Shown piece after piece: positions 1 through 19,129 of a DNA stretch of 20,970 nucleotides. The notes under the pieces are model-generated. The model made no database searches and was not told the origin of the DNA. It worked only from the letters and a program-made list of their open reading frames with translations. The position numbers and the translations under genes are program-made. Numbering within the stretch: position 1 is the stretch's first letter; every line of letters begins with the position of its first letter. The stretch is taken from assembly GCA_038143065.1 (NCBI GenBank), contig JAYQLI010000023.1, positions 1 to 20,970 on the forward strand. Reading direction: 5' to 3'. Source of the DNA: Rhodospirillales bacterium (lineage in GTDB: Bacteria; Pseudomonadota; Alphaproteobacteria; Bin95).

Positions 1-182
1 ATGTGCTTACAGCGAAGATATTGCTGCAGCATCGTAAAATTCGTCGCTGCCATTCGCAAAAGAGGAGGTTCTTAATTTAAAGATATCTAACAGGCTAAAG
101 CAAGATTGGAACGGCATCCAAAAGGAATGATCTATTCGTGGAAAATTAACTTGCGGCTTTACTTGAGGCCAAAGCCCCATTT

Positions 183-1073
183 TTAATATGCTGCTTGGTC
201 TACCGAAATCGTGACGCTGCCGCCGAATTTAGCTGAAATCCTACTGACGTATTTGGCGTCTTCTTCAGCACTTTTTGTGACGAAGGGAATGTGGACTGCG
301 ACCAACTGGTTAACCCCGGCATTCGCCGCGAGTCCGCCCAGTTCCTCGGGAGTGAGGTGATGTTCGCTCAAATGCTGCCGCATCTTTTGCAACGACTGTT
401 TTGACATCTCAGGGTTCTTGTCGATGATGCGTTTTATAACAATATCCGGATCGATCAGCTCGCCTACCAGTAGGTCGGCGCCCATGGCCAAATCTTCGAG
501 TGCCCGGCAAGGTCCGGTATCACCTGTGAAAACCATTGATCTGTCAGCCGTATCAAACCGGTAGGACAGCGATACAGGCCCATCCTGACCAAATTGATCT
601 TCAGAGCGGTAATGCGTGTTTTCACAACATGAGACCCTGACGCTGTCTATTTCGACAACATCTCCCGGCCTGATGTCACGGCTAACGATAAAATCGCGCG
701 GGTGCGGCAAAATTTGGCCTGGAATTCCAAAGCCGATCGACTGCGGGATATCGCAGGCCGTAATCAGGTGTTCCAAAATTTCACTGGTTCCTGGGGGGCC
801 ATAAATGTTCATCTGCTGATTTCGATGCGTCATCATGTTGAGGCCCAGACACGCAAAGAGGCTGCCAATATGGTCAAAGTGATGATGGGTTATGAAAAGG
901 TCGCGCACTTGTCGCAGATCATACCCGGCACGCCCGAGCTGTTGGAACGCGCCTTCCCCGCAATCTACAAGGATTGTACCGCCGTCATAGCAACCGCGCG
1001 CTGGTGGCATTCGGTGTGGCTTGGGCATTGGGCCACCTGCAGTCCCAAGCGTGATGAATTTGGTCCTCGACAT
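183..1073 (-). CDS. MBL-fold metallo-hydrolase, RNase Z / arylsulfatase (AtsA)-like, cytoplasmic
   Basis: N-terminal ITLGTAGGP, LVDCGEG, metal-binding THHHFDHIG (HxHxDH), IYGPPG, FTGDTG, C-terminal HHLTPEELG...LVAVH. No obvious signal peptide. Confidence 0.85.
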   Translation of the reverse strand: MSRTKFITLGTAGGPMPKPHRMPPARGCYDGGTILVDCGEGAFQQLGRAGYDLRQVRDLFITHHHFDHIGSLFACLGLNMMTHRNQQMNIYGPPGTSEILEHLITACDIPQSIGFGIPGQILPHPRDFIVSRDIRPGDVVEIDSVRVSCCENTHYRSEDQFGQDGPVSLSYRFDTADRSMVFTGDTGPCRALEDLAMGADLLVGELIDPDIVIKRIIDKNPEMSKQSLQKMRQHLSEHHLTPEELGGLAANAGVNQLVAVHIPFVTKSAEEDAKYVSRISAKFGGSVTISVDQAAY

Positions 1074-1120
1074 TGGTTTATTCCTAAAATTTATATCCTA
1101 GTATTTCACCCGCTGCTACA

Positions 1121-4100
1121 TCAGAGGTCCAGCGTGATTTCTTGGCATCCTTCTGCGGCCCGGGACTGGCAGGTGACGATTTCGGTCTTGCGTTGCGCAT
1201 CGGACAATACAAAGTCTCGATGTTCCACGTTGCCCGAAACGATCCCGCATTTGCAGACACCGCATATTCCATCCGAGCATTTCACGTCAACGGATATGCC
1301 ATTTTCCTGCAGCACATCTGAGATGGACCTATCCTCCGGAACCCACAGTTCTTTGCTCGATTTTGCAAGTTTGACAGTGAAGGCATGGTTTACGTAGTCA
1401 GGCTGTTCCGGGACTGAGAAATACTCCAGATGTCGCGCTTCTTCCGGGAAGCCATGCCGTTTGGCGGCTGCCATCACCCCATCCATGAACCGATCGGGGC
1501 CACAGGTATAGACATGCCAACCGGTTTGATACCTGGACAGAACCGTGTCTAGATCGGCACGGGATCCCTGATCTGAGAAATGGTAATGCACCCGATCTGC
1601 CCAAGGCATTTTTGCCAAGTCATCGAGGAACCCGGCCTCCGCCTTGCGGCTAGCCGAGTAATGCAGCTCAAAATCATGGCCTAGGCCATGCAGGCGGTCG
1701 AAGGCGATCATCGGGGTGATGCCGATGCCGCCGCCCATCAAGAAGGTCTTGGTGGCGCTTTCGTCCAGTTCGAAATGATTGATAGGTTTTGAAATAAAGA
1801 CCCGTCGGCCTTCGGAAAAGATCCGATGCATCATCTTAGAGCCGCCCCGACCGTCATCTTCTCTCAGGACTCCGATCTGATATTTTGATGTATCAGCTGG
1901 GTCGCCCGACATTGAATATTGCCGCAGGAATTCAGGGGTTACAACGACATCAAGATGCGCGCCAGCCGTCCAATCAGGCAGTGGCGCACCGTCCCAAGAG
2001 GTGAATTCATATTTTGTGACGCCTACGCTCATTTTATCGACCTTAGAAACACGCGCCATGATCACAGGGGCATCCCCAAATTTCGGGTATTCATGGGCCA
2101 AACCTCTCTGTCTCACCTCGCGCAAGCCGGCTTTTATCTCTCATCCGCTGAAATCATTTGCTTGTAAAGTTTGGATACCCGCTTCGCGGTCCATCAGGAA
2201 CGGGTATGGCCAGGGCCACGGCGCAAGGTTCGCCGGGTAGACTGCCAATGTCTGGTCTTCGTATTTCAGATCTAGATTCGTTTGTAGATCACGGCGGTTC
2301 ACCGGCTGGGCCAGTGCCTTATATCCTCCGTCTTCTTTTAGCTCTAAATCCCACCACCATTTTTTGATCTCGTTTAACCCACCGTGTCCGAGGCGGTCGT
2401 CCAGCTTTGCGAGCATTGGGGCGGCAGAAGGAACGTTGGAGGCAAGCCAACGAAAAGGCTTTTCCTTGAACAGCCCTTCAAGGTTCCATGGACAGGTCTT
2501 CATACAACGACCACACATCGCGCCTCCCTCTGTCGTGATCCGGTAGGTGGTGCATTTCTGGCTGTCGGACTTCCAAATCTCGTAGCCATTGAACATCTTT
2601 TTTGGACCAGCGGTGATTGCGCCTGAGGGGCATTCGCGAGCACATTTGTTGCAGTTCTCGCAGAAGTTCTGCAGTCCGAAGTCTATGGGCTTATCGTGTT
2701 ACAAGTGGCATGTCCGTGGTGACCACGCCAGATTTCAGGCGCGGCCCTAACAGCGGGTTCAGGATGACCTCGCCAATACGGCTGACCTCGCCTAACCCGG
2801 AAAGTAACAGCAAGGGCGGTTGGAGCACATCTCCGTCTGATGAGGTATGCGCCTTGGCACTGTAGCCAAGGTTGCGGATATGTTTGGCGATCACTCCGCC
2901 TAGAAGCGAGAAACGCAGATAGGCACGCATAGATTGCGCTACTGCAATCCAGTCATCGCCAGATGCCCCCTCCATAGTCTCGAACCCTTGATCGACAATC
3001 ATCGAAATGGCGTTTTGATGCGGCGGGATTAACTCTTCGCCGGTTGTACCGTGGCTATACCACGCCCATTCTGGGCAGCGCGAAATACCGACCGCGTCCA
3101 GTCCCAGAAAATAGCTCGCTGCTTTGACATTGGCCGCATTGCGTTCCGCCTCCGTGGGTTTAGCCGCTGAGGTCTTGGGTTCTCCGTCCTGTAGCAGAAC
3201 GAATGCGCCCAGCATCCGACGATGGGCTGACGCATGCGCGCTTTTGCGGATAAAAAAGCCGCCCTTTGCAGCGTCTTGTTGTTTCTTACCAAGATCGCCA
3301 AATTGCGCACGAGCGAACATGTTGGACCGTTTGGGGACTCGCCACCCGCTCTTCATCAATGAAGGTAGTGGGTTTCTCAACGCGTTTCAGTTTCTCGAAA
3401 GGGTAAGCGCCATCCATATACCTGCGCCGCCGGTAGGGGTCGCGGTTGAGCGCACCCTTTGCACACCCTTTTGCCACCCACCAGGCAGGGCCGAAGGTTT
3501 GTTCTTCCAAAGGAGCGAGAATGCGGTCCGATTCCATCTCCATGTCTGTGGTTACAATCGCCAATCCAAACCCTTTTGCCAATAAAAGGTGCATACAAAT
3601 GCCCGCGTTCAACCGTTGCAAGCCCTGCCGCAATAGCGAGTTTGCCCAGATCAACGTCCGAGGAGGTTGCCGTGTGCGCGCGCCTGAAACCCCAGTAAAT
3701 GCAGATAGTTTGACAGGATCACCGCCGTCTCAGAGGCCCGAAGTGCAGCGCGATGATCCTGCGCATCCTGTATCCATTCAACGCCGGGCTCGTCTTCACG
3801 CGGAGGTCGCATATGTTCGACAAGGCATACAATGGCATGTGAGTGGCCATCAATCGGGGTTGGCGACTCATCGATTGACTCTCTCAGTTCAGCCATAATA
3901 ACGTCGATTCCAGATGAAAGTGTCTTTGTCTGCTTGGTGCGAATCTCATCCGCCAACCTATCGATATCGGGGTTGCGTGTCGGCTTCGCCAGAAACGCGT
4001 CCCTTGGCAATCGGCAGACGCCAATCATTGAAGCATCCTGAAAATAGCCAAATGCCTTCATGTGATTGGACCGCTCAACTGGGTCGGATGGGGCCGTGCT

Positions 4101-4324
4101 CAGCACCGGATTTACCGTTCCATCCCGGATCAGATCCATCATCGCCTGATATTCGCCCATCGCGTTCACCAGCGAATGCGGTGTGCCAAGCCTACGAAAA
4201 TCTAGTGTGGTTGGAGTAGGTACCTGCGACAGGTCTGGCGCGCCATCTACCCGTTTCAGCCGCTCCAACGGATAGGGCCAAGATGAAATGGTCGATTTTT
4301 GGTCGAAAAGATACGTGGCCCCAT
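1121..4324 (-). CDS. rdhA: Catabolic (non-respiratory) B12-dependent reductive dehalogenase fused to a PDR/VanB-type flavin/NAD(P)H-binding + 2Fe-2S reductase (self-sufficient, BhbA-like); ~1070 aa when reassembled across several frameshifts
   Basis: ATG at 4324 gives MGPRIFSTKNRPFHLGP(Y)PLERLKR. The pieces are ORFs 3651-4268, 3286-3654, 2691-3380, 2141-2596 and 1121-2125. RdhA core: LSGLGEVSRIGEVILNPLLGPRLKSGVVTTDMPL. Fe-S motifs: FCENCNKCARECP (CX2CX2CX3CP, ~2626-2665, upstream of the annotated 2596 start) and KCTTYRITTEGGAMCGRCMKTCPWN (CX12CX2CX3CP). Reductase part: RQYS, GRGGS, GGGIGITP, YTCGP, CSDGICGVC...C. No Tat signal. Confidence 0.9.
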
Positions 4325-4353
4325 GGTATTGATTCTATCCCGTGATTTTGGTT

Positions 4354-5194
4354 TTAGGTCGATGACGAAGGTTGGCCCGTATAGCGTAACCGACGCGCAA
4401 GAACGGCTCGTGCTTGGGCCACGATTGGTGCGTCAATCATTTTATCATTTAAGGTAGCGACTGAGGCGCCGTTTTGCCTCGCTTTCTCTGCTACCGCGAT
4501 AATGCTCTGCGCCTCACGAAATTCATCGTCGCTTGGCATAAAGACATCATTCAACACTTTGACTTGCCCTGGATGGATGGCAAAACTGCCGGAGGCACCC
4601 AAAGCTCTTGCTTTAAGCGCCGCCGCTTCAAATCGTACAAAGTCTGTATAGTTCGCGATGGTGTCGGGAATCACCAAGGGTTCGATCCCCGCAGCGCGCG
4701 CAGCCTGGATCACCTGGAACGCCGCCGGCACCAGAAGTTCTGGTGTGGGAGGGGCACCCATCTCGGCCGAGTAGTCTTCGACGCCTAGGCCCAGTCCAAC
4801 GATAGTCGACGCAGCCTCGGCGATGGCAAGCGCGTCGATCACGCCACGCGGAGACTCGATTATCGGAATTAGTGGCGTGGCGCCAGCCAGGTCTGCGGCC
4901 TGCTTGGCTCCAGTGCTCGTGGCATGCGGCAACACGATCAAATCAGCACCCGCGCCTATCGCCACGGCGATGTCGTTTACGCCTCCCGAATGGAGCGGGT
5001 TTACGCGAACAGCAATGTCGGCTCCGGATGCTTCCAGGCCAGCAAGGGCTCCCGACAAAGCAGCGCGTGCTTCGTCTTTCGCTCCTGCGGTATCGCAGCC
5101 TCAAGTCAAGGACAACGGCATCAGCACCACGCGTCGCCGCGCCTTCGACCAAGCGGTTGTTTAGAATTGGCACAAAGAGCAGCGAGCGCCACAT
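4354..5194 (-). CDS. HpcH/HpaI aldolase / citrate lyase beta-subunit (CitE)-like acyl-CoA lyase (malyl-/citramalyl-CoA lyase family); frameshifted
   Basis: WRSLLFVP...GADAVVLDL (ORF 4943-5197) continues into AVRVN, PIIESPRGV, LGVEDYSAEMG, AIHPGQV, KMIDAPIV (ORF 4354-5058). The start overlaps the upstream stop (TGATG, 5192-5196). Confidence 0.85.
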
Positions 5195-6399
5195 CAAACT
5201 ATCCCTTTGACTCTTAGCGTTGCGATTTGATCTGCAGTGAGGCCAATCTCGGCGAGAACCTCGTCGCTATTTTTGCCCTCGCACGGGTGCGGGCGTGCGA
5301 ACCGTCGCAGGAGTCTTGGAAAGTCGGGGAAAGGCGCGTGCATCGGGAGGGCGCCGTGGTCGGGGTCGGTGTAAGTTCTTACGACCTGACGGCCTTGGAT
5401 ATAAGGGTGCGTCATCAGATCGGCGATGTCACAGATCGGACCAACCGTGATGCCGCGCTCCTCAAAATAGATGAGATTCTCTGCCACTGTCCGCTTAACG
5501 AAAAATGCGCCGACGATGACCTCAAGCTCTGCGCGGTTTTGCACCCGATCAGGATTGGTCAGGAACCGCGGGTCTTCGACCAAGTCGGGTCGTCCGATAG
5601 CGCTAGCGAGCTTCTCCCACATCGACTGCATCGTGGCCGACATCGCGACATAGCCGCCATCCGCGCATTCGTAGACGTTGCGCGGTGCGGCCACCTCGCC
5701 CCAGTTGCCGCTACGCTTTGGGACAGACCCGTCTATGGCGTGAGCAGTCGCCATAGGTCCGAGGATGCTGAACAATGGTTCAAAGAGATAGATCCACAAC
5801 CTGTCCCCGCGCCAGACCTTGATCGCGGGCGCGCAGCGCGGCAAGCACCCCACCATAGCCTGCTAGCCCCGCGATCATATCCGCAAGCGCCAAGGGTGGC
5901 AGCAGCGGCTCACGATCCGCAAAGCCGGTCATAGCGGCAAAACCGGACATGCCCTCAATCAGGCTGCCGAACCCAGGTTTGTCTGCGTACGGCCCCGTTT
6001 GACCCCAACCAGACACGCGTACGATCACCAGATCGGGGTTCCTTGCATCAACGCGTCGGGCCCGATGCCCCATTTCTCCAGCGTGCCGGGAACGAAATTT
6101 TCGACGAAAACATCGGCAGTCTCAACGAGCTTCAGCAGAACCTCTTGACCTTCTTTAGCGCGAGGGTTGAGTGACAGCGACCGTTTCGAACGGCTGTACT
6201 CCTTCCACCAGCTTTCGTGCTTGCCAAACCGACGCAGGTCATCGCCGACACCTGGGCGCTCAATCTTGATTACATCCGCCCCAAAATCTGCGAGCATGTG
6301 CGTCAGCATATTTCCTGCAGCTAGACGCGAAAGGTCCAGCACTCGCAGCCCGCGAAGTGGTGAACTCATGCCGTCGCTGAAAAGCGTCGGCTCCGTCAT
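5194..6399 (-). CDS. Family III CoA-transferase (CaiB/BaiF); frameshifted
   Basis: PLRGLRVLDLSRLAAG...LADFGADVIKIERPGVGDDLR, ADVFVENFVPG, RVSGWGQTGPY, LADMIAG, GQVVDLSL, APRNVYECADG, spread over three ORF pieces. Confidence 0.92.
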
Positions 6400-7293
6400 C
6401 TGTCCATCCGTTCCACAAACGCGCGTGCCTGATCCAGATAGGCTTGCTCTGCCGCCCGCTGCTGAGGCAGACCAACAAGGTCGGTATAGACTTGAAAGCC
6501 TACGCCGTGGTGCATCGCTTCACGAAGATCACCGTTTTTCAAGAGATCGCCGTAGAAGGTCTGAAGCGCCTTCATAACGGCATGAGTGGCTGTAACGGGC
6601 ATGGCGCAGGCGGCATAGCCCATATCTTGGTACTCCGCTGCCGACAAAAGTGGGGTCGCGCCGCCGTCGATCAGGTTTACCATGCAGGGGCCGTCAAGTT
6701 CCTTCGGTATCCGGCGAAGTTGTTCAATGATGCAACGGGGCCTCGATAAACAAAATATCTGCGCCAATCTCGCGATAAAGCGCCATACGATCCGTCGCTT
6801 CCTGGAACCCATCTGTTGCAATAGCATCGGTGCGCGCCATGATCATTGTGTCGCCCTGGCGGGCATCCAACGCTGCCTTTAGCTTTCCCACCATCTCTTC
6901 GACGCCAACGATGGCTTTACCTGCCATATGGCCGCAACGCTTGGGAAAGACCTGATCCTCAATAAAGAAGCCACCAACCCCGGCGCGTTCCAACACCTTA
7001 ACGGTACGCGCAACGTTGGTAACATTGCCAAAGCCCGTGTCGCCATCAGCCAACATCGGGATTTCAACCCGTTCCGCGATCCGAGCATAGTAATCTCCCA
7101 ACTCGGTCAACGACAATTGTGAGCTGTCTGGCCGCCCAAGCAACGACGCCGTTGCCGAGTAGCCGCCCGCTGCGATGGCGTTGGCGCCGCAACTTTGGGC
7201 GATCAAGGCGCTCAGCGTGTCATGTACTCCGGGTAAAACTGTGATTTCAGGGGCCTCAATAAGTGTGCGCAGTTGCGTTCCGGCGGTTGTCAT
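6396..7293 (-). CDS. Isocitrate lyase / PEP mutase superfamily C-C lyase (2-methylisocitrate / 2,3-dimethylmalate lyase-like); frameshifted
   Basis: PGVHDTLSA, LADGDTGFG, IEDQVFPKRCGH (catalytic Cys loop), MARTDA, LFIEA, then GATP in the second piece. The stop overlaps the CoA-transferase start (ATGA, 6396-6399). Confidence 0.9.
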
Positions 7294-8808
7294 GTTTTAG
7301 ATTCCGTATTCGTGGTAGGGTGTATCTCGGGCAAGCGGCGCAAAAAGTAGAATAATGTCACGCCAGAGAGCGCCAAAAGAACCAGTGCAATTGGGTATTC
7401 AATGATCCTAGTCCAATCTCCACTCATAAGTGCAGTGCTTTGGGCAAGAGAAATCTCAAAGCGCGGTCAAGGAAGAACGCGATGATGAATATGACGATGG
7501 AAAACCCAGTAGCGGGTCATGATATATCCAAGCGCTGCGAATATCAGCATGATCATAACGCTGAATAAACCACCCTCCGAGATGGACACGCCAACGATGC
7601 ACAAGAGAATGGCTGAAACATAGATGAAAGATTGGGGCGCGGAGACGACCTTGACCCAAAGCCTTAGTCCCAATTGTCCAATCCACAAGTTCAGGAAATT
7701 TGCCATGATCATGGCCCCGAACAGCCCATAGATCAGGCGCCCTTGGTTCTGAAACAACAGCGGCCCGGGTTGAATGCCGTGGATCATGAAGGCGCTGATG
7801 ATCAATGCCGCACTCACGCTGCCGGGAATTCCAAGGGTCAAAGCGGGATCAGGTTAGACCCGACCACCGCCGAGTTCGCCGACCCGTGGCAGCGATGCCG
7901 TGAATATTGCCTTTGCCAAAACTGTCGGGATCATAGAAGCGGCCTTAGCCGAGGAATAGGACATGAACGCGGCCGCAGTGCTGCCGATCCCGGGCGTGGC
8001 ACCCAAGAGCGTGCCGACGACGGCCCCCGCAGCAATGTGTAGCGACATGCCCAATATTCGGCCCAGCTAACCCGCCGGTCTGCAGGATCGCCATCGCCTG
8101 ACAAGTTGATTGCCGCTTCATTGGCCCCTTTATTCCGCGCTAGCCGAGCCAGGATTTCGGATATAGCCAACATACCGAGTGCTACCGAGGCCAAAGGCAG
8201 TCCGTCGTATAGCGCGTAATTGCCAAAAATCAGACGCGGCGAATAGTTTTCGGGATCAGCGCCGATAGTGGACACCAAGAGCCCAAGTGCCGCCGCAATC
8301 GCCCCTTTGATCAGGGATTTGCCAACGAGACCTGAAATGACCGCAAAGGCGAATATCATCAGTGCGAACACCTCTACAGGTCCCATCCTCAGTGCGAGGA
8401 CCGCCAATGGGGCCGAGACGGTGATCAGGACAATGTCACTGAACGTGTCCCCTGTGACTGAGGAGAAGAGCGCCATTTTTGTGGCCTTGAGCGGTTTGCC
8501 CTGGCGCGCAAGCGGGTGCCCGTCGAGCGCGGTTGCTGCAGAATCCGGGGTTCCCGGTGTGTTGATCAAAATTGCTGGAATGGCTCCGCCAACCGTACCC
8601 CTTTGGCCACGCCGACGAGAAAGGCAATCGCCGGAAGTGGATCGAGCGCAAATGTAAAAGGAATTGCAATTGCGATAGCCATAACGGGGCCGATGCCGGG
8701 GATCGCTGCCACGAGTTGTCCCAATACGACACCGAAGACCACAAAGCACACGTTCCACAATGTAAATGCATCGCCTAATCCGGCAAGAATGATGTCTAGA
8801 TCGACCAT
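7290..8808 (-). CDS. tctA: Tripartite tricarboxylate transporter large permease TctA; frameshifted, 3' end approximate
   Basis: AIPGIGPVMAIAI, GGAIPAILINTPGTP, TALDGHPLARQG, PGIGSTAAAFMSY, TLGIPGS...HGIQPGPLLF, across ORFs 8566-8808, 7931-8815, 7854-8054 and 7467-7841. Confidence 0.92.
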
Positions 8809-8817
8809 AAAGCAACC

Positions 8818-9248
8818 TCAGGGCAGTGGACGCTCAAGGACTTGTACCACCAGAAACCAAATGGCCGCTGGCATTCCTACAGAGCCCAGCGCCAGCCAAA
8901 CGGGGCGCCGTTCACCGAAGATCAGCATGATCGCGAGGGCGAGGAATGCGGAAGCCACGACAAATCCGAAACGGGAAATAGCGAACAGTGCCAACGCGAT
9001 AACAGCGAAGTAAATCAAAACCATCTTCAGTTCCTGAAAACTTCTCTGGATCTGTGCCCCGGGTTTGATCGCCAGAAAATTCCGCAGAACACCAGAAAAC
9101 CGGCCAGTGCATTGGGCAGAAGGTCGGGCCGAATGGACCCGTCGTCGATGTCTTCAATTGCTATTGGAAAAATCACGAACAGCAATACCAAACAGAGGGT
9201 CACGACAATCAGCCCTGCAATTCTATCTGCTTCAAGTTTCATGCTCAT
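8818..9248 (-). CDS. tctB: Tripartite tricarboxylate transporter small subunit TctB; frameshifted
   Basis: Small, hydrophobic and located between tctC and tctA. N-terminal ADRIAG, GSIRPDLLP, FGFVVAS, and C-terminal VLERPLP are typical of TctB. Confidence 0.8.
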
Positions 9249-9299
9249 GAACAATAATACTCGCGCTCTGCTCGCCTAAGCAAGCAAAGCGCAGTTCCT

Positions 9300-10246
9300 T
9301 TATTTACCAATCAGCTGTTCCATGATCGGCAATTCGTCGATCATCATATTTCGGGTTGCTGCTGGATCAAGATTGAGCACTGTGGTTTTGGCCGCATTGC
9401 GGACGATTTCAATCACCTCATCTGAGGCCAAGGCATTGCTGATTGCATTACTCAGGGCTTCTATGATGGCCGGATCGGTTCCCTTGGTGGTAGCGATGTA
9501 GAAATTAGAATCGAGGGAAACACCGTACCCCTGCTCGGTAATGGTTTTGACATCCGGCGCATAAGCGTGACGCTTTGGCATTGCCGACCGCGATCATTTT
9601 CACATCGCCTGATTCAAGATATGCACCGTGCGAGCCACCCGCGAAAGAGGCCATCACCTGCCCGCCCAATAGCAGCTTCATGCTTTCGGCTCCGCCTTTT
9701 GTGTTGACGAATTGGAACTCCGCACCGGTCTTCTTGCCGACAGCAGCCAACAAAAGTTTGTGCGGTGAGGCGTTGATAGCGACCGCTAGCGGACCATTGG
9801 CCTTGGCATATTCAACCATGCTTTCCAGATCATCGAATGGGGCGTCCTTACCTGCAACAAGAGCAAGTTGGCCGCGCGCAACGCTGGTAAGATAGTCAAA
9901 GTCATCGACTTTGAAGGGCAGTTGGTCACCGCGCTTTACAAGCTGCATGAGAATAGGTGTGCTGACGCCCATCCCGATAACCTGTCCGTTGGGTTCTGAT
10001 TGTGAAATGCCTGTGAACATTGCAACGCCACCGGCGCCAGGTTTATTCTCAACCACAACATTCCATCCAGTTTGATCTTCCATAACCTTGGCGATGACAC
10101 GGCCCATCGCATCGGTCGAGCCACCGGCACCAAAACCGATTTGGAACATCAAAGGACCATCAGAGTCCATTCTGCGCATTTGCCGCACCGGCGAGTGCCG
10201 TGACTGCAGCAAGCACTACGCCTGCTATTTTAGTTCTAATTTTCAT
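9300..10246 (-). CDS. tctC: Tripartite tricarboxylate transporter substrate-binding protein TctC (Bug family); frameshifted
   Basis: GGAGG RBS, then ATG at 10246 giving a signal peptide MKIRTKIAGVVLAAVTALAGAANA. Motifs GFGAGGSTDAMGR, VVENKPGAGG, KGGAESMKLLLGG, PDVKTITEQG. Confidence 0.9.
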
Positions 10247-10368
10247 CTGTTTTCCTCCCATTTGCCAGCACGCAAGGATCTACGCCCTTTAAGCCAGAAA
10301 TTGACTGTAATGGCATCGAGATTGACATTATCCAATCCATCTGAAAAGTATATTGTTTCTATTGAAGA

Positions 10369-10385
10369 TATCTGGAATATAGATA
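10369..10385. promoter_or_regulatory. Candidate LysR-type recognition site (TATCT-N7-AGATA; contains T-N11-A)
   Basis: TATCTGGAATATAGATA inverted repeat just upstream of the lysR ATG in the divergent intergenic region. A degenerate copy, ATCTGAAAAGTATAT, lies at 10339-10353. Confidence 0.6.
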
Positions 10386-10390
10386 AAGTA

Positions 10391-11342
10391 ATGGATTATG
10401 ATCTGCGCCAATTGCGCTACTTTTTGTAATGATTGCCAACGCAGGCAGCTTTTCGAAAGCCTCCTTGCAGCTTGGCGTCGCACAATCCGCGCTTAGCCAT
10501 CATATGGCTCAGATGGAGGCCCGTCTTGGAGTCACTTTGTTCTCGCGCAGTTCAAAAGGCATAGAGCAAACCGAAAAGTGGTTCTAGATTTTTGAACCAT
10601 GCTCAGGCTTTCATCCTTGCCGCAGTAGAAGCGGCGACCAATGATGTGCGCGACGACGCTAAAGAGCCAGGCGGGCTAGTCAGGTTGGGTGCTACACTGA
10701 CCGTCGCGCCAATGTTAATTGAGCAAGTGATGTCTCGGATTTCCCAGACGGCCCCCGCGTGTCTCGTTACGTGTCGAAGAACACCTTAGCCCGCAATTGA
10801 TGCAAAAGGTTGCCAGTGGAGAGCTTGATATTGCCGTGTGTTTCAATGCTGGTGATGATCGACGGATCGACGGAATACCCATTTTCGAGGAGGATATCTG
10901 CCTGGTAGGCTCGCCAGATCTTGTCGGCAAAACAGAGGCCAAAATCAGCCTCGAAGAGGCGCTTTCCTTCCCTCTGCTTCTTCCAGGGCGCGACCATATT
11001 CTTCGTGGAATGATTGATCGTGTTTCCCTGTTCAGGAACCGTCCCATCGACGTGCGCCATGAATGCCTTTCGCTACATTCGCTGCATGCAGGGCTGCGCC
11101 TTAGTCTGGGGGCCACTCTGATATCTCGGTTCTCGGCACTTCCCCTCACTCAAAACGGCGATGTCTTATGTCGGCCAATCGTTGAGCCTGTCGTGTCACG
11201 TCAGCTCTTTATTGCCTCAAGTTCCGAAAGGCCAAAAACAACTGCACAGGAGGCCGTGGTCCGAACACTGCACGATCTCATTAAAGAAAGTCTCGACTCT
11301 GGAAATTTACCAGGAGCAAGGGCCATATTATCCAAAAAGTAA
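10391..11342 (+). CDS. LysR-type transcriptional regulator, divergent from the tct/rdhA operon; frameshifted
   Basis: MDYDLRQLRYFL then IANAGSFSKASLQLGVAQSALSHHMAQMEARLGVTLFSRSSKG (HTH, read across frames), EPGGLVRLGA, SGELDIAV, FPLLLP. Confidence 0.9.
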
Positions 11343-11609
11343 TTTATAATAGACGTGCCTATTATACTAATGTCTGCCCGGCGGCGCGGCTTTCCAAGTT
11401 GAGAGAAATGGGCGCTTTATCATTGAGCGGCTCACTGGATCAATTGAATTTTGTGGCTCGAGCCAAATGCAGCTAAAGAGACTGCCTTTATAGTATCTTG
11501 AGGTTAGCTCCAAAGGCGGAAATTGTTGTGTGAACCATATCAGCCCCTAGTAAATGGCCCTGTCTGTAGATTTTCTGATGCGTCGTTGAAACAGTCTTCT
11601 GGCCCTTTG

Positions 11610-12848
11610 TTAAATAGTGGCTCCAACCACCCGGCCAACTGATTGGCCAAAGCCGATCTTGTAATCAATGCACGAGGAACAGCCTGAGATCGTGATAATA
11701 TCTCCATCCTCGATGAAGCTTCGCGTGTCGCCATTTGCCAATTTTATTGGCCTTTTTCCCCACTCAACTGAGTTCAAGCATGGACCCCGATTTGCGTGAG
11801 CTGGTCCAGAAATCGTACCGGACCCCAGCAAATCACCTACCCGCATCGGGCATCCACTTGAGGTGTGGTAAAAAGCCAGCTGTTGTGCAGAAGAATAGTA
11901 CATTTCTTTGTAGTTTGTGCGCGTTATCGTCGTCGCCTGACCGGATGCGGGTATCAGCTCAACTTGTAGATCTATGTCAAAAAGCATCGGGCCGGTGTCT
12001 TTTATGTGATCCAGAATTTCGAACTCGCGGTCTGGGGTCGAGACACGGAACGGATCAAGTGCGGCTTGGGTCACAATCCACGGGCTAATCGTCGCTGCGC
12101 CGTTGCCTTAGACTGGAATGGGCCAAGTGGTTGATATTCCCAGGCTTGGATGTCGCGCGCGGACCAATCGTTCAACAAGACATAACCAAAGATATTTGCG
12201 TCCGCCTGATCAACCGAGATGCGGCCTTGCGACGCGGTTCCAACAATCGCGCCGAGTTCAAGCTCGAAATCAAATCGAGCCGAGGGGCCGAAGCGGGGCC
12301 GATCGTCATTCGGGCCTTTCAGCTGACCCAAGGGCCGCTGTACCTCCGGTTCCAGAGATTACAACCGATGACGCGCGGCCATTGTAGCCGATTGGAATAT
12401 GCAGCCAGTTGAGGGGTAGCGCCCTTTCTGCCCCACGAAACATAGTACCAACATTGGTTGCATGGTGGCGGCTTGCGTAGAAGTCGGTGAATTCTGTTAC
12501 CGTGAAGGGCATGTGCATTTGCGCAATCGCTTGCGGAATTATATGCGGCTCAAGCTTTGAACGGTCGTTCGAACTATCACCGAGCATGGCGGTCAGTTGG
12601 GCACGAAAATCTGCCCATGCCTGGGATCAAGCTCCATGAAAGCGTTCCATGCGCCTGTTGCGATACCCAGCTGGAAGACCAAATTCATTGGCCAATGCCG
12701 TTACATCGAGTATCTTGTCGCCAATCGCGACACCGCAATGTTCTTTGAGGCTACCAGCCGAGAAAACGCCGTAGGGCAAATTGTTAAGGGGGAATTCCGT
12801 TTGCGCATTATTCGCGCTGGTAACCCATGAATTCAGGCGATTTGTCAT
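11610..12848 (-). CDS. fahA: Fumarylacetoacetase; frameshifted
   Basis: FPLNNLPYGVFS, GVAIGD, FTDFYASRHHATNVG, HIPIGYNGRASS, DFELELG, LLNDWSARDIQAWEYQPLGPF, GDLLGSGTISGP, FIEDGD. Confidence 0.95.
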
Positions 12849-12859
12849 TTTTTTAGTCC

Positions 12860-13485
12860 TTACTTAGCATTGGGCTGAACTTCGGGGCGCGCGCGATTGA
12901 ACGGGGCAAGGCTCAGGCAGTTTCTTTCAATGTCGAGCAGGCGATCGAGGCCAGCAAGGTCGGTTGACCAACGATGAGCGTTATAAAGCTGAGGGATCAG
13001 ACAAATGTCTGCGATTGTTGGTTCTGATCCAAAACAGAAAGGCCATCGCCGATCAAGAGTTAAAGGCTCGCAGCCCTTCGCGCATCCAGTGATTCATCCA
13101 AGCAACCGTCTCATCTTGGCCGTGCCCCATGGCCTTCAAGCGTCCGATCACTTTCAGGTTGTTAATCGGGTGAATATCGGAGGCGATGATCATTGCCGCA
13201 GCATTCACTTTGGCAGCTTCAAACGGGTCATCCGGCAACAAAGGCGGCGCTGGTACTATCTGGTCCAGATAACGAAGAATCGCCATAGACTGGGTCAATG
13301 ACCGGCCATCTTCCAAGCTCAAGCATGGAACGCCCCTCGAAGGGTTTAGCAGGCTGTATGACGCGCTGCGTTGCTCCCCCTCCAAAAGGTCAACAGGCAC
13401 AATTTTATGCTCTATGCCTTTCAGCTGCAAAGCAATCCGCGCGCGGTAAGATGGAGGACCGCCAGTAGGAATACAGTTGTATCAC
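12860..13485 (-). CDS. maiA: Maleylacetoacetate isomerase (GST zeta); frameshifted
   Basis: GTG at 13485 gives IQLYSYWRSS.SYRARIALQLKG, then LNPSRGVP, LTQSMAILRYLD, DIHPINNL, and C-terminal ARPEVQPNAK* (stop at 12860). Confidence 0.9.
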
Positions 13486-13487
13486 CT

Positions 13488-14822
13488 TTATTTCCGACCC
13501 GGCTTGCCATCGAATTTCTTTTCCAGCGATGTCCAACACTCGACATAATCGTCCTGCAAGGGCGCCTCTTTGCTGGCAAATTCCGTTAGATGCTGCGGAA
13601 AGCGTGTTTCGATCATGAAGGACATCGTGTTGTCGAGCTTTTCAGCCCCAAGCTTGGCATTGGACGCGCCATCAAAAGCGTTCTTGTCTGGTCGTGGGCA
13701 GCATCATGTTGTGAAGGCTGACGCCACCTGGAACGAAGCCTTCTGGTTTAGCGTCATATTGACCGTAAATATTGCCCATCAATTCAGACATGATGTTCTT
13801 TGTGATACCACGGCGGGCGGAAGGTATCTTCCGGCCACCATCCAGCGTTCACGAAACAGTACGAAGTCGATATTGGCCGTGCCTGGTTGACCGCTAAGGG
13901 GCAGTCAGGACGGTGAAAATGCTGGGGTCAGGGTGATCAAATGGGACCGCCCCGACGGGGGCAATAAGGTCCGCAGGTCGTATTTGTACGGCGCGTAGTT
14001 GCCGTGCCAGGCAACCACGTCCAGAGGGCTTTGTTCGATTTTGGTTTTATGGAACTGCCCACACCATTTCGCAGTCACGATCGAATGTACTTCGCGGTCT
14101 TCAAAGGCCGCCACCGAAGTTTTGAAATCGCGTGGGTTAGCCATGCAATTGGCACCAATTGGTCCGCGTCTCGGCAGTTCAAATTTTTGTCCGTAGTTTT
14201 CGCAGCAACAAATCCACGCGCTGGGCCGTCAACACTTCAACCCGATATAGCAGACCTCTTGGAATGATCGCGATTTCCTTGGGCTCGAGGTCAATAATCC
14301 CCAGTTCGGTACAGAACCGGATATGCCCTTCTTGGGGATAACCAGCATTTCGCTATCGGCCGAAAAAAAATAACTATCGACCATCGACTCGGTCGCCAGA
14401 TAGATATGCGTCGCCATGCCGATCTGCGTGTTCACATCTCCCGCCGTTGTCATGGTGCGCATACCCGTCAGCCATGTCAGGTCTTGATCCGAGTGAGGCA
14501 CTGGGTTCCAGCGGTACTGACCGAGCGATATTACATCAGAACCACATGGGCGCGGATACCCAATATGGCAGATCAATCTTTTCATAGCGGTGGCTGTGTT
14601 TGACGGATGGACGGATGCGGTAGCACCACGTACGCTCGGGGCGCACATCGGTGAATGCCGTTCCGGATAGCTGCTCGCCGTAAAGGCCATATTCGCAACG
14701 CTGCGGGCTGTTCATGCCTTGCGGTAGGGCGCCCGGCAAAGCCTCGGTTTCGAAATCGTTCCCAAAGCCGGGCATGTAACCAACGTTGGGGCCACCAAGC
14801 GATGGAGCAATTTCAAGCTCAT
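13488..14822 (-). CDS. hmgA: Homogentisate 1,2-dioxygenase; frameshifted
   Basis: [81 protein letters not shown]. The ATG at 14822 overlaps the hppD stop, with a GGAGG RBS upstream. Confidence 0.95.
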
Positions 14823-15920
14823 TGTAAGGCGACCTCCTTATCATAATCACCCGAAGCAATCTCCTCGGCCTCAATGCTCTCAAACAAGGCCTTAAAGTTA
14901 CCCTCGCCAAAGCCATCATCGCCCTTGCGCTGAATAAACTCAACAAAGATTCGGCCGATCACAGTTTTTGAAAATATCTGTAACAGGATCTTCGTCTCAC
15001 CGCCGTCAAGCACACCTTCGCCATCAATCAAGATCCCGTGGCTTCATCCGTTCCGATCGGTTCGTCATGCCCGCTGACGCGATCAAAGGACCTATCGTAA
15101 TATGTGTCAGGAGGTCCTGGCATGAATTTGACGCCCTTTTCAGCAATTGCATCGACGGACGTATAAATATTATGAGCGCCAACCGCGATGTGCTGAATGC
15201 CCTCGCCGTTATATTTCTTGAGGTAATTAACAATCTGCCCCGTTTCGCCGCGATCTTCATTGATCGGAATACGGATGCGACCACATGGAGATGTCAGGGC
15301 ACGGCTTAAAGGCCTGTAAATTTACCTTGAATATCGAAAAGCGGATCTCCTTTGAAATTGAACAGATCACCATAAAATGCAAACCACTTTTTCATGTTGC
15401 CCTTGAAAACATTATGGGTCAAATGATCGAGATAGTAAAACCCAACTCCTTGCGGATGCGCATTGCTGATCCAGTCAAATTCATCGTTATAAACACTTTG
15501 CTCGCAGTGCTGATCAAAGAAATAGATGAGCGATCCGCCGATTCCGATAATCGCCGGTGCATCCATGACCTTGCCTGTGCCGTTATAGGGTGTTGCTCCA
15601 TTTTTCACGGCATGATCAAAGGCGTTCTGGGCATCAACGACGCGCCAGCCCATAGAAGGTGCACAAGGGCCATGCTCTTGAATGAACTGTGCCGCCTGTG
15701 AGTTTGGTTCAGCATTGATGAGGTAAGAAATGTCGCCCTGCTGCCAAAGTTCGACCCTTTCGTCTTGTGATTGGCGACGTGAGTATAGCCCATCTTTGAA
15801 AATTATCGCGCAAAGACTGCGGATCGGGATGGGCGAACTCAACGAACTCAAAACCGTCGGTCCCTGCAGGGTTATCGGATGTGATCTTAGCGGGGCGCAT
15901 CATGTGGGGAAAGGGCCCAT
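14819..15920 (-). CDS. hppD: 4-hydroxyphenylpyruvate dioxygenase; frameshifted
   Basis: ATG at 15920 gives MGPFPH...[16 protein letters not shown], then [52 protein letters not shown]. Confidence 0.95.
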
Positions 15921-15939
15921 ATTTTCTCCAGAGGCTAAA

Positions 15940-15993
15940 TATTTCATGAAATAATAATTGCCTTCTCTTAAAATTTGTGTGCATTATTATGCA
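15940..15993. promoter_or_regulatory. AT-rich divergent promoter region with two inverted repeats (candidate Lrp/AsnC operators)
   Basis: Perfect palindrome TATTTCATGAAATA (15940-15953) and TGCAT-N4-ATGCA (15980-15993), both between hppD and the Lrp gene. Confidence 0.45.
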
Positions 15994-16038
15994 ATAAATA
16001 ATAAAAAACGCACAAAATAAGTCATAATTGAGAAAAAT

Positions 16039-16529
16039 TTGCATAACTATCTCGACAAGTTTGATCATCAGATTCTGCGTGCATTGGTAAAGAACAGCGC
16101 GCTGACCAACGCGCAATTGAGCGAGGTGTAAACCTGTCCACTTCGCAATGTTCCAGCGCCGTGTTCGACTTGAAAAGGTGGTTTTATCTCAGGCTATCAT
16201 GCACGACTAAACGCGCGGAAGCTTTGGGGCATCACTTTGCGTGCGGTCGTCCGCGTAAACCTAAATTCGCACAGCGCAGAAAATGAGAACGAGTTTACCA
16301 AGATGTTGGCACGTCATGACGAAATTGTTGAGGCGTTCCTCTATCATGACATGCGGATTACGTGCTTATCTTGCAATGCGAAAGTTTGGTTCGATTTGCA
16401 GACTTCATCCACCTAAGCTATTACCTCAATCGATCATAGGCCAGGTTAAGTCTCGAGATCGTACTGCGCGATATTAAGCGACCGAGCAGTGTTGGCGATA
16501 AAAACAAATTTTCCGTGACACTTTTATAA
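16039..16529 (+). CDS. Lrp/AsnC-family transcriptional regulator (HpdR-like), divergent from hppD; frameshifted, ends approximate, not in the ORF track
   Basis: TTG at 16039 gives HNYLDKFDHQILRALVKNSALTNAQLSE.VNLSTSQCS.RRVRLE...ISGYHARLN, and the C-terminus reads IVLRDIK. Lrp regulators divergent from hppD are known in alphaproteobacteria. Confidence 0.8.
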
Positions 16530-17189
16530 AACGCTTAAAGCCCAGATTACAATAATGCACGTCCCCTGATCGAGACCCATGGCCAGAGCAAACCCATAGA
16601 TGCCTCGATTGTGGCTTTAACCGCTTGTTTCCCAGCCGTTTTAATTATGCTCTTTAGCCTAAACAATCCATTCCGTGGTTGGCCCGGATCTAGGTTGCCG
16701 AAACTGGATTGCAACCCTAGTATCCATGGCACTCAATCATGCACATTACGATAGCAACTGAAATCTATCGCGAGCCAGAAAACCTAAAGAGTGTTTAGCT
16801 TCTGTTTTGCCACGCAAAGTTGAAAGCGCCTTAAGATAGGCCCCCATCTAAATAGCTCAAACCGACTGCAGTGAAGGCGTAGTTTGGCTTTTAGGATCTT
16901 TTGGCGGGGTTCAAAGATTACTTCGGCGAGGTCAACTGCAACAGCGACAATCATGCCAGAGATGCGGATCGTTTCTGGGTAACAGATGCGTTTGCAAAAG
17001 CCCGGTTTGTCCGCTTTAGCAGACATTTATATCTTCGTTGCGCGAAAGGCCCGGACTTGGATTATTTTATTGTTTAAGCAACTTTATTGGTCTGCATTTT
17101 TATCAGCTATGTCAGCTGGAGGAATTATAAATCTGCCCAAACAGGGTCTACTTTGATTTTTTCAAAGAAAGTTCAAATCTGTCCAGCCC

Positions 17190-18050
17190 CTATATTCGTC
17201 CATTGATTTTTGGTTTCTCTAATAGGGTTTCTGGGACGGGTGGGCGCATGTTTAATGCATGGTGAGGTCTGATCTGGTTGTATTGCCTGAGCCAGGCATT
17301 GATTGCGACCTGAGCTTGTTTGGTGGTGTGGAACCATTCCGCGTTGAGGACTTCTTTTCGCAAGGTGCCGTTAAAGCGCTCGTTATACCCATTTTCCCAA
17401 GGGCTGCCTGGATAGATTTGCATTGGTTTGATCCCAACCTTCTTCAGCCAGTCCTGTAGATGCGTGGCAATGAACTCAGGTCCGTTGTCAGAGCGAATAA
17501 ATTCTGGCTTACCATGTTTAATCAGCAGTGGGTGCAATGCGTCCAAAACATCGTTCGCATTCATTTTGGACCGCACTGCCACGCAGAGCGCCTCACGGGT
17601 ATATTCATCTAGAACCGTCAGCATTTTATAGCTGCGCCCATTGCTAAGCTTATCGTGCACAAAGTCGATCGCCCAAATATGATTGGGGTGTGTGGGCCGC
17701 AGCCTGATGATGGAGCTGTCTTTGTGATAAAGCCGTTTGCGCTTCTTGTGCCGGCGCGGCAGCTGTAAACCTTCTTCGTTCCATAAGCGCTCGATCCTCT
17801 TGTGGTTAACACGCCAGCCTTCCATGCGCAGCAGGGCTGTGACTTTCCTATAACCATACCACCCATATTGCTTGGCCAGCCGGATCATCGCCAAGCGTAG
17901 TTTGGTATCATCTACTGGTTTGGCTTGATAGCGCAGAGTTGAGCGGGCTACATCCAGAACAGCGCAAGCACGCCGCTCAGAAATATCCAGCTTTTGACGC
18001 GTATGAATAACAGCCTGACGAAGCTGAGCCCGCGTCAGGCCCGCGGCTTT
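17190..18050 (-). CDS. IS3-family transposase OrfB (DDE integrase core), in the -1 frame relative to OrfA
   Basis: The frame is open upstream of the annotated 17894 start (ISERRACAVLDVARSTLRY). Motifs YGYRKV, VNHKRIERL, WAIDFVHD, LDEYTRE, IRSDNGPEF, PWENGYNERFNG, RPHHAL. Confidence 0.95.
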   Translation of the reverse strand, partial: KAAGLTRAQLRQAVIHTRQKLDISERRACAVLDVARSTLRYQAKPVDDTKLRLAMIRLAKQYGWYGYRKVTALLRMEGWRVNHKRIERLWNEEGLQLPRRHKKRKRLYHKDSSIIRLRPTHPNHIWAIDFVHDKLSNGRSYKMLTVLDEYTREALCVAVRSKMNANDVLDALHPLLIKHGKPEFIRSDNGPEFIATHLQDWLKKVGIKPMQIYPGSPWENGYNERFNGTLRKEVLNAEWFHTTKQAQVAINAWLRQYNQIRPHHALNMRPPVPETLLEKPKINGRI

Positions 18051-18323
18051 AGATGATCAAGGCTCTCCTTCAGGATCACCTTGTCTAACTGCAAGTCAGC
18101 GACGATCTTCTTCAAGCGCTCGTTTTTCTTTCTTGAGCGATTTCATCTCAGAAACCTGGAACGAGAAAGGCCTCCAAACTTCTTACGCCAGTAATAATCG
18201 CTCTTATCTGAAATCCCAGCTTTGCGACACACGAACTCACAACGTCAAACCATCGTGCAAATGAACATCAATCTCGCGTAACAACTTCAACACATCTTCA
18301 TCAGAATAACGCTTTCGAGCCAT
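18036..18323 (-). CDS. IS3-family transposase OrfA (HTH); contains indels
   Basis: MARKRYSDEDVLKLLREIDVHL...CRKAGISDKSDYYWRKKFGG...ERLKKIVADLQLDKVILKESLDHLKPRA*. Confidence 0.85.
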
Positions 18324-19129
18324 GTTTCCTTACTCCCTTTGCCAATATATACTGGCACAGTTCTAGGGGGTTAAGACAATTGTTGAATGGCTGGCCCACC
18401 TTTCCCAACCCCTCTTTGCAAAAAAAACAGAAAGATGTTCAGCCCCTCGCTCTGGGAAGCTGCCAGTTTTTTGGTCGGTCCACCCCAACCGTTTCCTTTC
18501 CACGCAGACCCTCTTACCAAGCTTCAGTGAGTGCGCACTGGTTGCGGAAGCTCCTGAGCCTGTGCTGCCAGGTCCTTGGCCCGAGTTGGTTGAATCACAC
18601 TCTCGTGGATGTGGATCGTCTGCCCTTTCCTCGAATCGCTTCGATGCTGCAGGGATAATGCAGCTGGATCTGCCATGGTGGCTGGGCTTCGTGCGTCAGC
18701 CTCCCACTCTTTGCCGAGGTCCAGAAGGCGCTGATCGCATCCTGCGATCTCCCGGCTTCTGCGCATCTCTGTTGCCTGGGTCGAGTGCACAGCCCGCAGA
18801 GTCAAGCTTACTGGCTGAGCGTGCGGAGTGATGCCCCACAAGGGAGGCCGTGGATGGGGTGGGGTTGCCGCAAGAGGTGGCGTTACGACCAAGCGCCTCA
18901 CGTATCCCTGAGAATCGGGGCCTCGAGGAAAGGGTATGCTATCGCTGAAGGTACGATTTGGCAGGTTGCCAGCGAGGCTGCAAGCAGAAAGCCTCGCTGC
19001 AACGGTGCAAGTGGTTTGCCTCAGCGAGGCGCATACTAGGGTTGGCTTGCTAACTGTCGCTGGTCAAGCAGCGAGGGCTTGGTTGAGACCGCTACGCCTC
19101 TGTCCGGCTGCCCTTCGTCGCGGGTGGCT

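Follow-up and report, generated by a model that had tools for sequence, protein, structure and literature searches.

Self-sufficient reductive dehalogenases (RdhA) are common in marine roseobacters. Their core is represented by NpRdhA from Nitratireductor pacificus (PDB 4RAS, 6ZXU and 6ZXX), which lacks a fused reductase; according to the available sections of its description, substrates are bound via a free phenolic hydroxyl ortho to the halogen, and residues S422, Y426, K488 and R552 bind this hydroxyl and donate a proton (PMC7565698). A fused architecture, in which an NpRdhA-like core with B12 and two [4Fe-4S] clusters is combined with a reductase resembling phthalate dioxygenase reductase, is found in JtRdhA (Jhaorihella thermophila), BhbA (Comamonas sp. 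7D-2) and Ros_A3X954 (Roseobacter). As far as the accessible parts of the two reports go, dehalogenation by JtRdhA is driven by NADPH (PMC10463259) and Ros_A3X954 debrominates 2,6-dibromophenol (PMC13101508); two enzymes have been characterised, on artificial or simple bromophenols, and in those parts neither natural substrates nor partner enzymes are named, nor is gene context discussed, including any operon with tripartite tricarboxylate transporter (TTT), isocitrate lyase (ICL)-family, CaiB, CitE and sulfatase genes. Here we describe such an operon, containing an rdhA gene of this type, on a contig of a Rhodospirillales bacterium (JAYQLI010000023.1, contig C23 of assembly GCA_038143065.1, which comprises 4.63 Mb in 52 contigs); the entire 20,970-bp contig was analysed and is called the window. 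The window RdhA has the same fused architecture as the three enzymes above, with which it has a marine alphaproteobacterial origin and a presumably cytoplasmic location in common, JtRdhA and BhbA being likened to it by architecture and not by sequence; with NpRdhA it shares the core and the key residues.

The cluster is real, intact in nature and conserved in a small clade, and its arrangement is apparently undescribed. The reading that we favour, with about even confidence, is a mosaic in which an independent acid-catabolic operon carries a dehalogenase-arylsulfatase module on its 3' end. It would be a horizontally moving operon of marine roseobacter-group alphaproteobacteria, with two separable modules on one transcript. 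Module A (lysR, tctCBA, a petal-death-protein-like ICL-family lyase, a CoA-transferase similar to succinate-hydroxymethylglutarate CoA-transferase (SUGCT), and a CitE/CLYBL-like lyase) would take up a di- or tricarboxylic hydroxy acid related in type to 2-substituted malates or citramalate, and would split it either directly by the ICL-family lyase or, after CoA activation by the transferase, by the CitE-like lyase, with acetyl-CoA and a 2-oxo acid as products. Module B would consist of the self-sufficient B12-dependent RdhA followed by a cytoplasmic arylsulfatase homologue of the metallo-β-lactamase (MBL) fold; the latter would free the phenolic hydroxyl of a sulfated ortho-bromophenol, which RdhA would need for binding, and RdhA would then remove the bromine with NAD(P)H via its own reductase domain. 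Of the results reported here, the repeated pairing of sulfatase and dehalogenase genes is the most useful: it suggests that the natural substrates are bromophenols esterified with sulfate, red-algal lanosol sulfates being an example; if true, the marine organobromine and organosulfate cycles would be linked, and the diversity of operons holding these enzymes would be explained. The claim of a new halogenated-carboxylate pathway using both C-C lyases, made in a preliminary description of this DNA, is weaker than it first appeared. The genes of the cluster, with the supporting Pfam families, are the following:

183–1073, minus strand: MBL-fold hydrolase, arylsulfatase homologue (S4/AtsA-like), 296 amino acids (aa); Lactamase_B_2/Lactamase_B.
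1121–4324, minus strand: rdhA, reductive dehalogenase with C-terminal FNR/2Fe-2S reductase; Fer4 families, Fer2, DmmA-like_N, and PDB matches.
4354–5194, minus strand: CitE/HpcH-family acyl-CoA lyase (CLYBL/RipC-like), in two frames; HpcH_HpaI, C-C_Bond_Lyase.
5194–6399, minus strand: family III (CaiB-type) CoA-transferase, in three frames; CoA_transf_3 on three fragments, profile positions 1–363.
6396–7293, minus strand: ICL/PEP-mutase family C-C lyase with a KRCGH loop, in two frames; PEP_mutase, ICL.
About 7467–8808, minus strand: TctA, large membrane subunit of the TTT, in at least three frames; TctA on four fragments, and tblastn with the TctA of locus L003 (see below).
About 8818–9299, minus strand: TctB, small membrane subunit, in two frames, start approximate; TctB, and tblastn with the L003 TctB.
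9300–10246, minus strand: TctC, periplasmic binding protein with a signal-peptide-like N-terminus, in two frames; TctC on two fragments.
10247–10391: divergent intergenic region between tctC and lysR, 145 bp, presumed control region; start codons read from the sequence.
10392–11342, plus strand: LysR-family regulator, in three frames; HTH_1, LysR_substrate.

Much of the preliminary description stands. The eight co-oriented genes that it had placed divergently from lysR all lie on the minus strand and were confirmed with Pfam; the gene identities that it had named, including a self-sufficient reductive dehalogenase of the NpRdhA/JtRdhA type, were upheld by Pfam and PDB matches; and the junctions that it had quoted agree with the minus-strand sequence, namely ATGA at 6396–6399 between caiB and the ICL-family gene, TGATG at 5192–5196 between citE and caiB, 29 nucleotides (nt) from the citE stop to the rdhA ATG, and 47 nt from the rdhA stop to the ATG of the MBL gene. 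Its term "MBL hydrolase" was right as to the fold, and the protein is better read as an arylsulfatase homologue in view of a full-length match to PDB entry 8GYG. The transporter is complete, with TctA, TctB and TctC on adjacent fragments (PF01970, PF07331 and PF03401); its three genes are intact and contiguous in locus L003, a contig of the isolate Ruegeria sp. HKCCD8929. The spacer between tctA and the ICL-family gene (window 7290–7466) measures 173 nt, against 85 nt in L003, and contains a small open frame of about 45 codons from the first Met, hydrophobic in appearance and resembling a single transmembrane helix, which may be spurious.

By its sequence, the dehalogenase is a typical representative of the self-sufficient catabolic enzymes already characterised. 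A near-identical, full-length protein (P0001, used as proxy for the window) matches NpRdhA (4RAS/6ZXU) over the core with E ~1e-161, and its residues 758–1067 match phthalate dioxygenase reductase (2PIA) with E 7e-56; the fragments of the window rdhA itself match 4RAS with E 1e-67 and 4e-31. The catalytic domain was recognised by TIGR02486 in the intact L003 orthologue (223.6 bits, cut-off 160.35). Two 4Fe-4S cluster motifs follow the B12 domain (Pfam Fer4_7 and Fer4_16, window 2141–2698), and the C-terminal reductase part lies at window 1121–2140 (Pfam Fer2 and DmmA-like_N), the fusion being continuous in the 1072-aa protein of L003. The N-terminus aligns from residue 3 with that of NpRdhA, and no twin-arginine motif was visible by eye. 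In alignments to NpRdhA, S422, Y426, K488 and R552 are all conserved; A419 is replaced by Val, F290 by Met and P311 by Ile, and the entrance position K307 probably has no Lys, the alignment being gapped in that stretch. These differences in the pocket mean that the preferred substrate may differ from 3,5-dibromo-4-hydroxybenzoate.

The gene following rdhA carries the link to sulfate esters. The best PDB match of its product is 8GYG, deposited as "Arysulfatase", with E 1.8e-55 for the window protein (residues 4–292) and 3.4e-59 for the L003 orthologue, the latter at about 40% identity over 293 residues (counted by eye); RNase Z comes next among the PDB matches, at E 9e-12. An HxHxDH metal-binding motif is present in the window translation and in the 8GYG alignment, and no N-terminal signal peptide was seen by eye. 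Family S4 of SulfAtlas (AtsA-type arylsulfohydrolases) belongs to the MBL superfamily, carries the HxHxDH motif and branches next to RNase Z, and its in vivo substrates are described as unknown in the part of the source that was available (PMC5066984); membership was taken here to require at least 30% full-length identity to a characterised arylsulfohydrolase. Several points weigh against the assignment and against the pairing built on it. NCBIfam places the MBL protein nearest to RNase Z, GntH and phosphodiesterase models, below every cut-off. The arylsulfatase assignment depends on about 40% identity to 8GYG, an entry whose activity is given by the depositor's name only, and a literature search found no publication on it. 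In a sample of 400 genomes, MBL homologues occur at 52–59% identity in six further genomes and at 36% in one more, with rdhA within 1.5 kb in none of the seven; six of the seven (all six that were examined) adjoin TRAP transporter genes, without rdhA. One of them (L098, G200:C1, 2856–12286) looks like a multi-sulfatase island without rdhA: the MBL homologue, at 59% identity, is flanked to one side by a TAXI-TRAP transporter and an S1 sulfatase, and to the other by a siderophore-interacting-protein-like reductase and an S3-type alkylsulfatase.

The association of rdhA with sulfatase genes was nonetheless found repeatedly in a survey of rdhA loci, in which 586 relatives were confirmed with one genome per species and the best 79 loci were kept; open reading frames (ORFs) were called by a simple longest-ORF heuristic, and neighbour counts are approximate. 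The MBL gene follows rdhA in the window, in L003, in L012 (Neptunicoccus cionae) and, inverted, in L010. In four other loci (L063, L072, L073 and L074), an S1 formylglycine-type sulfatase gene lies 6–15 nt upstream of rdhA in the same orientation; its products have the CxAxR motif and no visible signal peptide, and show their best NCBIfam similarity to PehA/arylsulfatase, below the cut-offs. S1 sulfatase genes are found 0.3–2.7 kb from rdhA in six more loci (L007, L009, L019, L029, L035 and L040). As a side observation, L029 (808–6863) shows a third kind of dehalogenase-sulfatase arrangement, with co-oriented genes for RdhA, a cytochrome P450 and an S1 sulfatase, in that order. Altogether, S1 or S4-like sulfatase genes occur within 2.8 kb of rdhA in 13 of the 79 loci, and none was found beyond this distance in the surveyed flanks (1.28 Mb, 62% of it more than 3.5 kb from rdhA); with only four tblastn queries behind it, the figure is a rough one. 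Kinship among these loci also has to be discounted, as the 13 correspond to about eight lineages, which are spread over several deep branches of the tree. The finding of two unrelated sulfatase folds in the same position argues for function rather than accident. With a dehalogenase that binds its substrate by a free phenolic hydroxyl, the link is also chemically sensible. In red algae, bromophenols are stored in sulfated form, lanosol-4,7-disulfate being a major metabolite and 3-bromo-5-sulfo-DOPA a further reported compound, according to the portions available (PMC9322897). The dehalogenase probably acts on sulfated bromophenols, with the sulfate removed first; here and throughout, we infer all substrates, and the order of desulfation before dehalogenation. 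No paper linking catabolic reductive dehalogenases with sulfatases was found in the literature searched, which left out most subscription journals, and the link appears undescribed.

The second pillar of the mosaic reading is the separability of the upstream genes. Of the 79 loci, only four (L001, L003, L010 and L023) have CitE, CaiB and other genes of the block upstream of rdhA: the full gene set is present in L003 and a partial set in the other three, L001 and L023 being short contigs with 92–93% nt identity to the window. Elsewhere the surroundings of rdhA are hugely variable. An ORF was found upstream of rdhA in 70 loci and is co-oriented in 41; in 24 of the 70 it is both co-oriented and within 100 nt, and these neighbours fall into 15 families. 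In a FastTree tree of 71 full-length proteins (SH-like support, midpoint root; rdhA ORFs below 900 aa, and with them the partial or split copies of L001, L006, L007, L023, L025, L071 and L073, were left out), P0001, L003 and L010 group with L002 (support 89), and this group is nested in a well-supported clade of 17 rows. In L002 (Pacificoceanicola), a relative from the closest clade, rdhA stands by itself, with a pirin gene on the opposite strand to one side and a Crp-type gene to the other. The reverse situation, the block without the dehalogenase, was met in metagenomes, where a scan with CitE yielded two close relatives, L081 and L082. Contig L081 reads LysR-TctC-TctB-TctA-ICL-CaiB-CitE without rdhA; its proteins share 71–88% aa identity with those of L003, and for TctA the identity with L010 is 94.6%. 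LysR shows 78% aa identity between window and L003 and 84% between L003 and L081. Six nt past CitE, L081 continues with a convergent Lrp-type gene and then a gene for a thiamine-diphosphate-dependent enzyme, the same pair that follows rdhA and the MBL gene in L010; L010 and L081 therefore differ by exactly the rdhA-plus-MBL segment. In L082, CitE is the only block gene visible and is followed by unrelated genes. On these comparisons, in which the block without rdhA shows 66–95% aa identity, the upstream genes form a self-standing unit, separable from rdhA.

This outcome divides the earlier proposal of one new organohalide pathway. The gene set is conserved, and no published description of the combination was found in the same literature, in line with the earlier statement that no characterised pathway is known to contain it. 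The unity of the pathway did not hold up as well, given that the LysR-Tct-ICL-CaiB-CitE block exists without rdhA on two metagenome contigs and that 4/79 rdhA loci have the block. The suggestion that the lyases and the CoA-transferase act on a halogenated substrate finds no backing: the block occurs without rdhA (L081 and L082), the rdhA family occurs in many unrelated contexts, and nothing in the data ties the ICL-family, CaiB and CitE enzymes to a halogenated substrate. Two considerations count against separability. The position of rdhA directly after citE persists across three lineages (window with L001 and L023; L003; L010) whose proteins now share 66–88% aa identity, which would also fit a functional tie; and the absence of rdhA and the MBL gene from L081 may reflect a loss rather than the original state, the direction of gain or loss between L010 and L081 not being decidable from the identities. 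A different string was observed in L012 (6108–14140), where TctC, TctB and TctA are followed by a D-amino-acid transaminase (passing NF005209), RdhA and the MBL protein; its TctC shows only 42–43% identity, so it probably serves a different ligand class, and the string may indicate that halogenated aromatic D-amino acids form a further class of substrate.

Whether the two modules are transcribed together was approached from the junctions, from motif scans and from public RNA contigs. The spacer before rdhA measures 29 nt in the window, 12 nt in L003 and 4 nt in L010. The spacing part of the one-transcript claim is borne out, as 29 nt before rdhA leaves no room for a terminator; so module B would be transcribed by read-through from the LysR-controlled promoter of module A, and the operon would be co-transcribed as a whole. 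Promoter and terminator scans of window and L003 returned counts at chance level, with nothing between citE and rdhA, and are uninformative; in the tctC-lysR intergenic region, no promoter motif exceeded chance. The terminator-like scan gave one further feature, which is conserved:

9262–9293, minus strand: GC-rich hairpin with a stem of 13–14 pairs, exactly at the tctC stop and tctB start.

It has 14 pairs in the window and 13 in L003 (4931–4960), and may adjust how much binding protein is made relative to the membrane subunits, through transcriptional attenuation or mRNA stabilisation. In one metatranscriptome run (X18), contigs cover 15 of the 30 bins of window 1–16500, all inside 551–10450, and lie on the MBL gene, rdhA, the caiB-citE junction, tctA, tctB and tctC; stretches 4401–4950 and 6051–7150 are without cover. 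No X18 contig maps to lysR or to the homogentisate genes in the 6 kb beyond it, a silent control within the same DNA. This is weak evidence, from a single run and from contigs only, that the eight genes are expressed together in nature. Against co-transcription of the two modules, no X18 contig bridges citE and rdhA, so no statement on a single transcript can be drawn from contigs.

These data also bear on the view that rdhA and the MBL gene are mere neighbours of an unrelated operon, with a promoter of rdhA's own inside the 3' end of citE and an MBL protein that is, for example, a phosphodiesterase or lactonase. Relatives of rdhA are often monocistronic, as in L002, MBL homologues occur mostly without rdhA, the nearest NCBIfam models for the MBL protein are the three types mentioned above, and the promoter and terminator scans are uninformative. 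We nevertheless hold this view to be improbable, with spacers as short as those in window, L003 and L010, an rdhA-MBL adjacency that recurs in four genomes, including L012 with its different upstream gene, non-homologous sulfatases in the same neighbourhood in other clades, and a full-length arylsulfatase match at E 1e-55 to 1e-59 against 1e-11 for RNase Z.

The state of the reading frames has to be considered before the cluster is taken as functional. The MBL gene is the sole unbroken frame of the string, the other eight of the nine genes being split over two to five or more frames. Decay of the whole array into pseudogenes would account for this, and is very improbable. The small contigs of the assembly are all poor in long ORFs, being equally fragmented, and the 2.86-Mb main contig is normal. 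Compared with L001, a contig of a metagenome-assembled genome that is 93% identical, the window shows 13 indels over 4.2 kb, several of 2 nt and outside homopolymers. Logan short-read contigs of three DNA studies (estuary, seawater and plant metagenome by their labels) span 30 of 30 bins of window 1–16500 and match it at about 99%, the differences being mostly indels (89 indel rows; 87 gaps against 68 substitutions in the eight listed records of run X1), and one indel, at 2699/2700, turns up both in the comparison with L001 and, independently, in each of the three short-read runs. Orthologues are intact: P0001 is a 1068-aa RdhA without interruption, 88–98% identical to the window fragments, and L003 is collinear with window 158–11323 at 76–81% nt identity, with nine intact genes and junctions as tight as those of the window (-4, +9, +85, -4, -1, +12 and +48 nt), which shows that the arrangement did not come about by chance. 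Because of the fragmented small contigs, the indels against L001, the short-read contigs and the intact orthologues, the frame breaks are read as assembly errors and not as gene decay, and the pseudogene reading was rejected; the earlier advice to polish the sequence was justified.

Beyond lysR, the window contains further genes:

11613–16188, minus strand: complete homogentisate pathway (HPPD, HmgA, MaiA-type GST and fumarylacetoacetase), all genes frame-broken; Pfam Glyoxalase_5/HPPD_N, HgmA_N/C, GST_N/C, FAA_hydrolase(_N).
17179–18379: insertion sequence (IS) element with an rve-type integrase; copies at 92–96% on contigs C10 and C12, weaker copies on C33, C42, C4 and C50.

The preliminary description had reported no oxygenase in the operon. 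This holds only within the operon and overlooks two dioxygenases of the homogentisate pathway directly past lysR. The homogentisate set is an additional one: the genome has two other hmgA regions, on C44 and C46, with only about 65% nt identity to it. Its adjacency to lysR is bridged by short-read contigs of the three studies; in L003 (which has an integrase gene and a further LysR gene at that place) and in L081, homogentisate genes do not adjoin the cluster. The copies of the IS element at 92–96% on C10 and C12 of the same assembly speak against mis-binning and make it probable that the window contig belongs to this genome. The GC content of the contig is 0.527 against 0.469 for the main contig, and the rdhA core is absent from all nine same-genus genomes; the region therefore looks horizontally acquired. 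Past the IS element, at 19197–20234, lie frame-broken methyltransferase genes unrelated to the cluster (Methyltransf_13 zinc-binding, then Methyltransf_23/12/11).

The opposite of a mosaic would be a single integrated pathway, a more specific form of the earlier proposal. A sulfated and/or brominated 4-hydroxyphenyl-substituted hydroxy-acid, or an amino-acid-derived acid, would be imported by TctCBA, desulfated by the MBL protein and debrominated by RdhA; its side chain would be cut to acetyl-CoA or acetate and 4-hydroxyphenylpyruvate by the CoA-transferase and CitE-like lyase or by the ICL-family lyase, and the product would be used by the homogentisate pathway. The gene order, kept in three diverged lineages 4–38 nt before rdhA, agrees with this. 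Among 401 sampled genomes of the family to which the Ruegeria isolate belongs, a CitE orthologue (E<=1e-70) was met in the isolate alone, so the block is rare (none in the 400 other genomes), and five of the seven contigs with the block carry rdhA. Petal death protein (1ZLP) is the best structural relative of the ICL-family gene product, the extra hppD-hmgA-maiA-fahA set lies directly past lysR across a junction bridged by three studies' contigs, and L012 has an analogous string of TctCBA, D-amino-acid transaminase, RdhA and MBL protein. The opposing evidence is of several kinds: the block occurs without rdhA in L081 and L082, the homogentisate genes do not adjoin the cluster in L003 or L081 and had no RNA contigs in X18 where the operon had them, the low identity of the L012 TctC probably reflects a different ligand class, and the available portions of PMC9322897 yielded no natural product with the structure that such a pathway would call for. 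The integrated halogenated-carboxylate pathway is thus judged less likely than the mosaic, and on the whole an unlikely, though serious, alternative. In the boldest extension, which we regard as improbable, the widespread marine "catabolic" RdhAs would have sulfated bromophenols as their in vivo substrates, and each would be paired with a cytoplasmic sulfatase of its own, a partnership that would have arisen at least twice (S1 formylglycine and S4 MBL folds); here a TTT importer, enzymes for CoA-dependent cleavage of the side chain and a further homogentisate pathway would have been joined to it, giving a full mineralisation route for a sulfated, brominated tyrosine-derived acid of red algae or sponges.

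The upstream enzymes were compared with their described relatives. None of the ICL-family protein, the CoA-transferase and the CitE-like lyase reaches any NCBIfam equivalog cut-off. The ICL-family protein is not a PrpB equivalog (TIGR02317, 230.3 against 354.4; NF008455, 196.4 against 353), and its PDB matches are petal death protein (1ZLP, E 4e-55), which we take to be a broad 2-alkylmalate lyase, and methylisocitrate and dimethylmalate lyases (about 1e-44). The KRCGH catalytic loop, read in its translation, is common to petal death protein, methylisocitrate lyase and 2,3-dimethylmalate lyase; unlike methylisocitrate-lyase systems, the window has neither prpC nor prpD near the ICL-family gene. 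The CaiB-type CoA-transferase finds its best PDB match in SUGCT (9BR7, E 3e-62), with a score of 249.5 against a cut-off of 750 for the succinate-glutarate CoA-transferase model. The CitE-like lyase matches best the citrate lyase 3QLL and acyl-CoA lyase beta chains, its solved relatives being RipC-like or CLYBL-like, and it scores below the cut-offs for CitE (TIGR01588, 138.6 against 443.4) and RipC (NF038242, 122.6 against 375), and neither citD nor citF is present in the cluster in window or L003. TctC matches binding proteins of TTT systems with E 1e-24 at best, and these relatives offer no clue to its ligand.

RipA/Ict with RipC/Ccl, and human SUGCT with CLYBL, carry out CoA-dependent cleavage of the itaconate/citramalate type. 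As in these systems, a family III CoA-transferase adjoins a CitE-like acyl-CoA lyase in the window; unlike them, the window lacks a hydratase gene and has an extra ICL-family lyase and a TTT importer. The ICL-family/CaiB/CitE set presumably fits cleavage of a 2-substituted malate or citramalate-type acid, directly or via its CoA ester, to acetyl-CoA and a 2-oxo acid. With the S4 arylsulfatases represented by AtsA of Pseudoalteromonas carrageenovora (P28607), the MBL protein shares the fold, the HxHxDH motif and a length of about 300 aa, and it differs from them in having no visible signal peptide. The dehalogenase itself is a further member of a known, characterised type; the arrangement in which it stands and its link with sulfatases appear undescribed.

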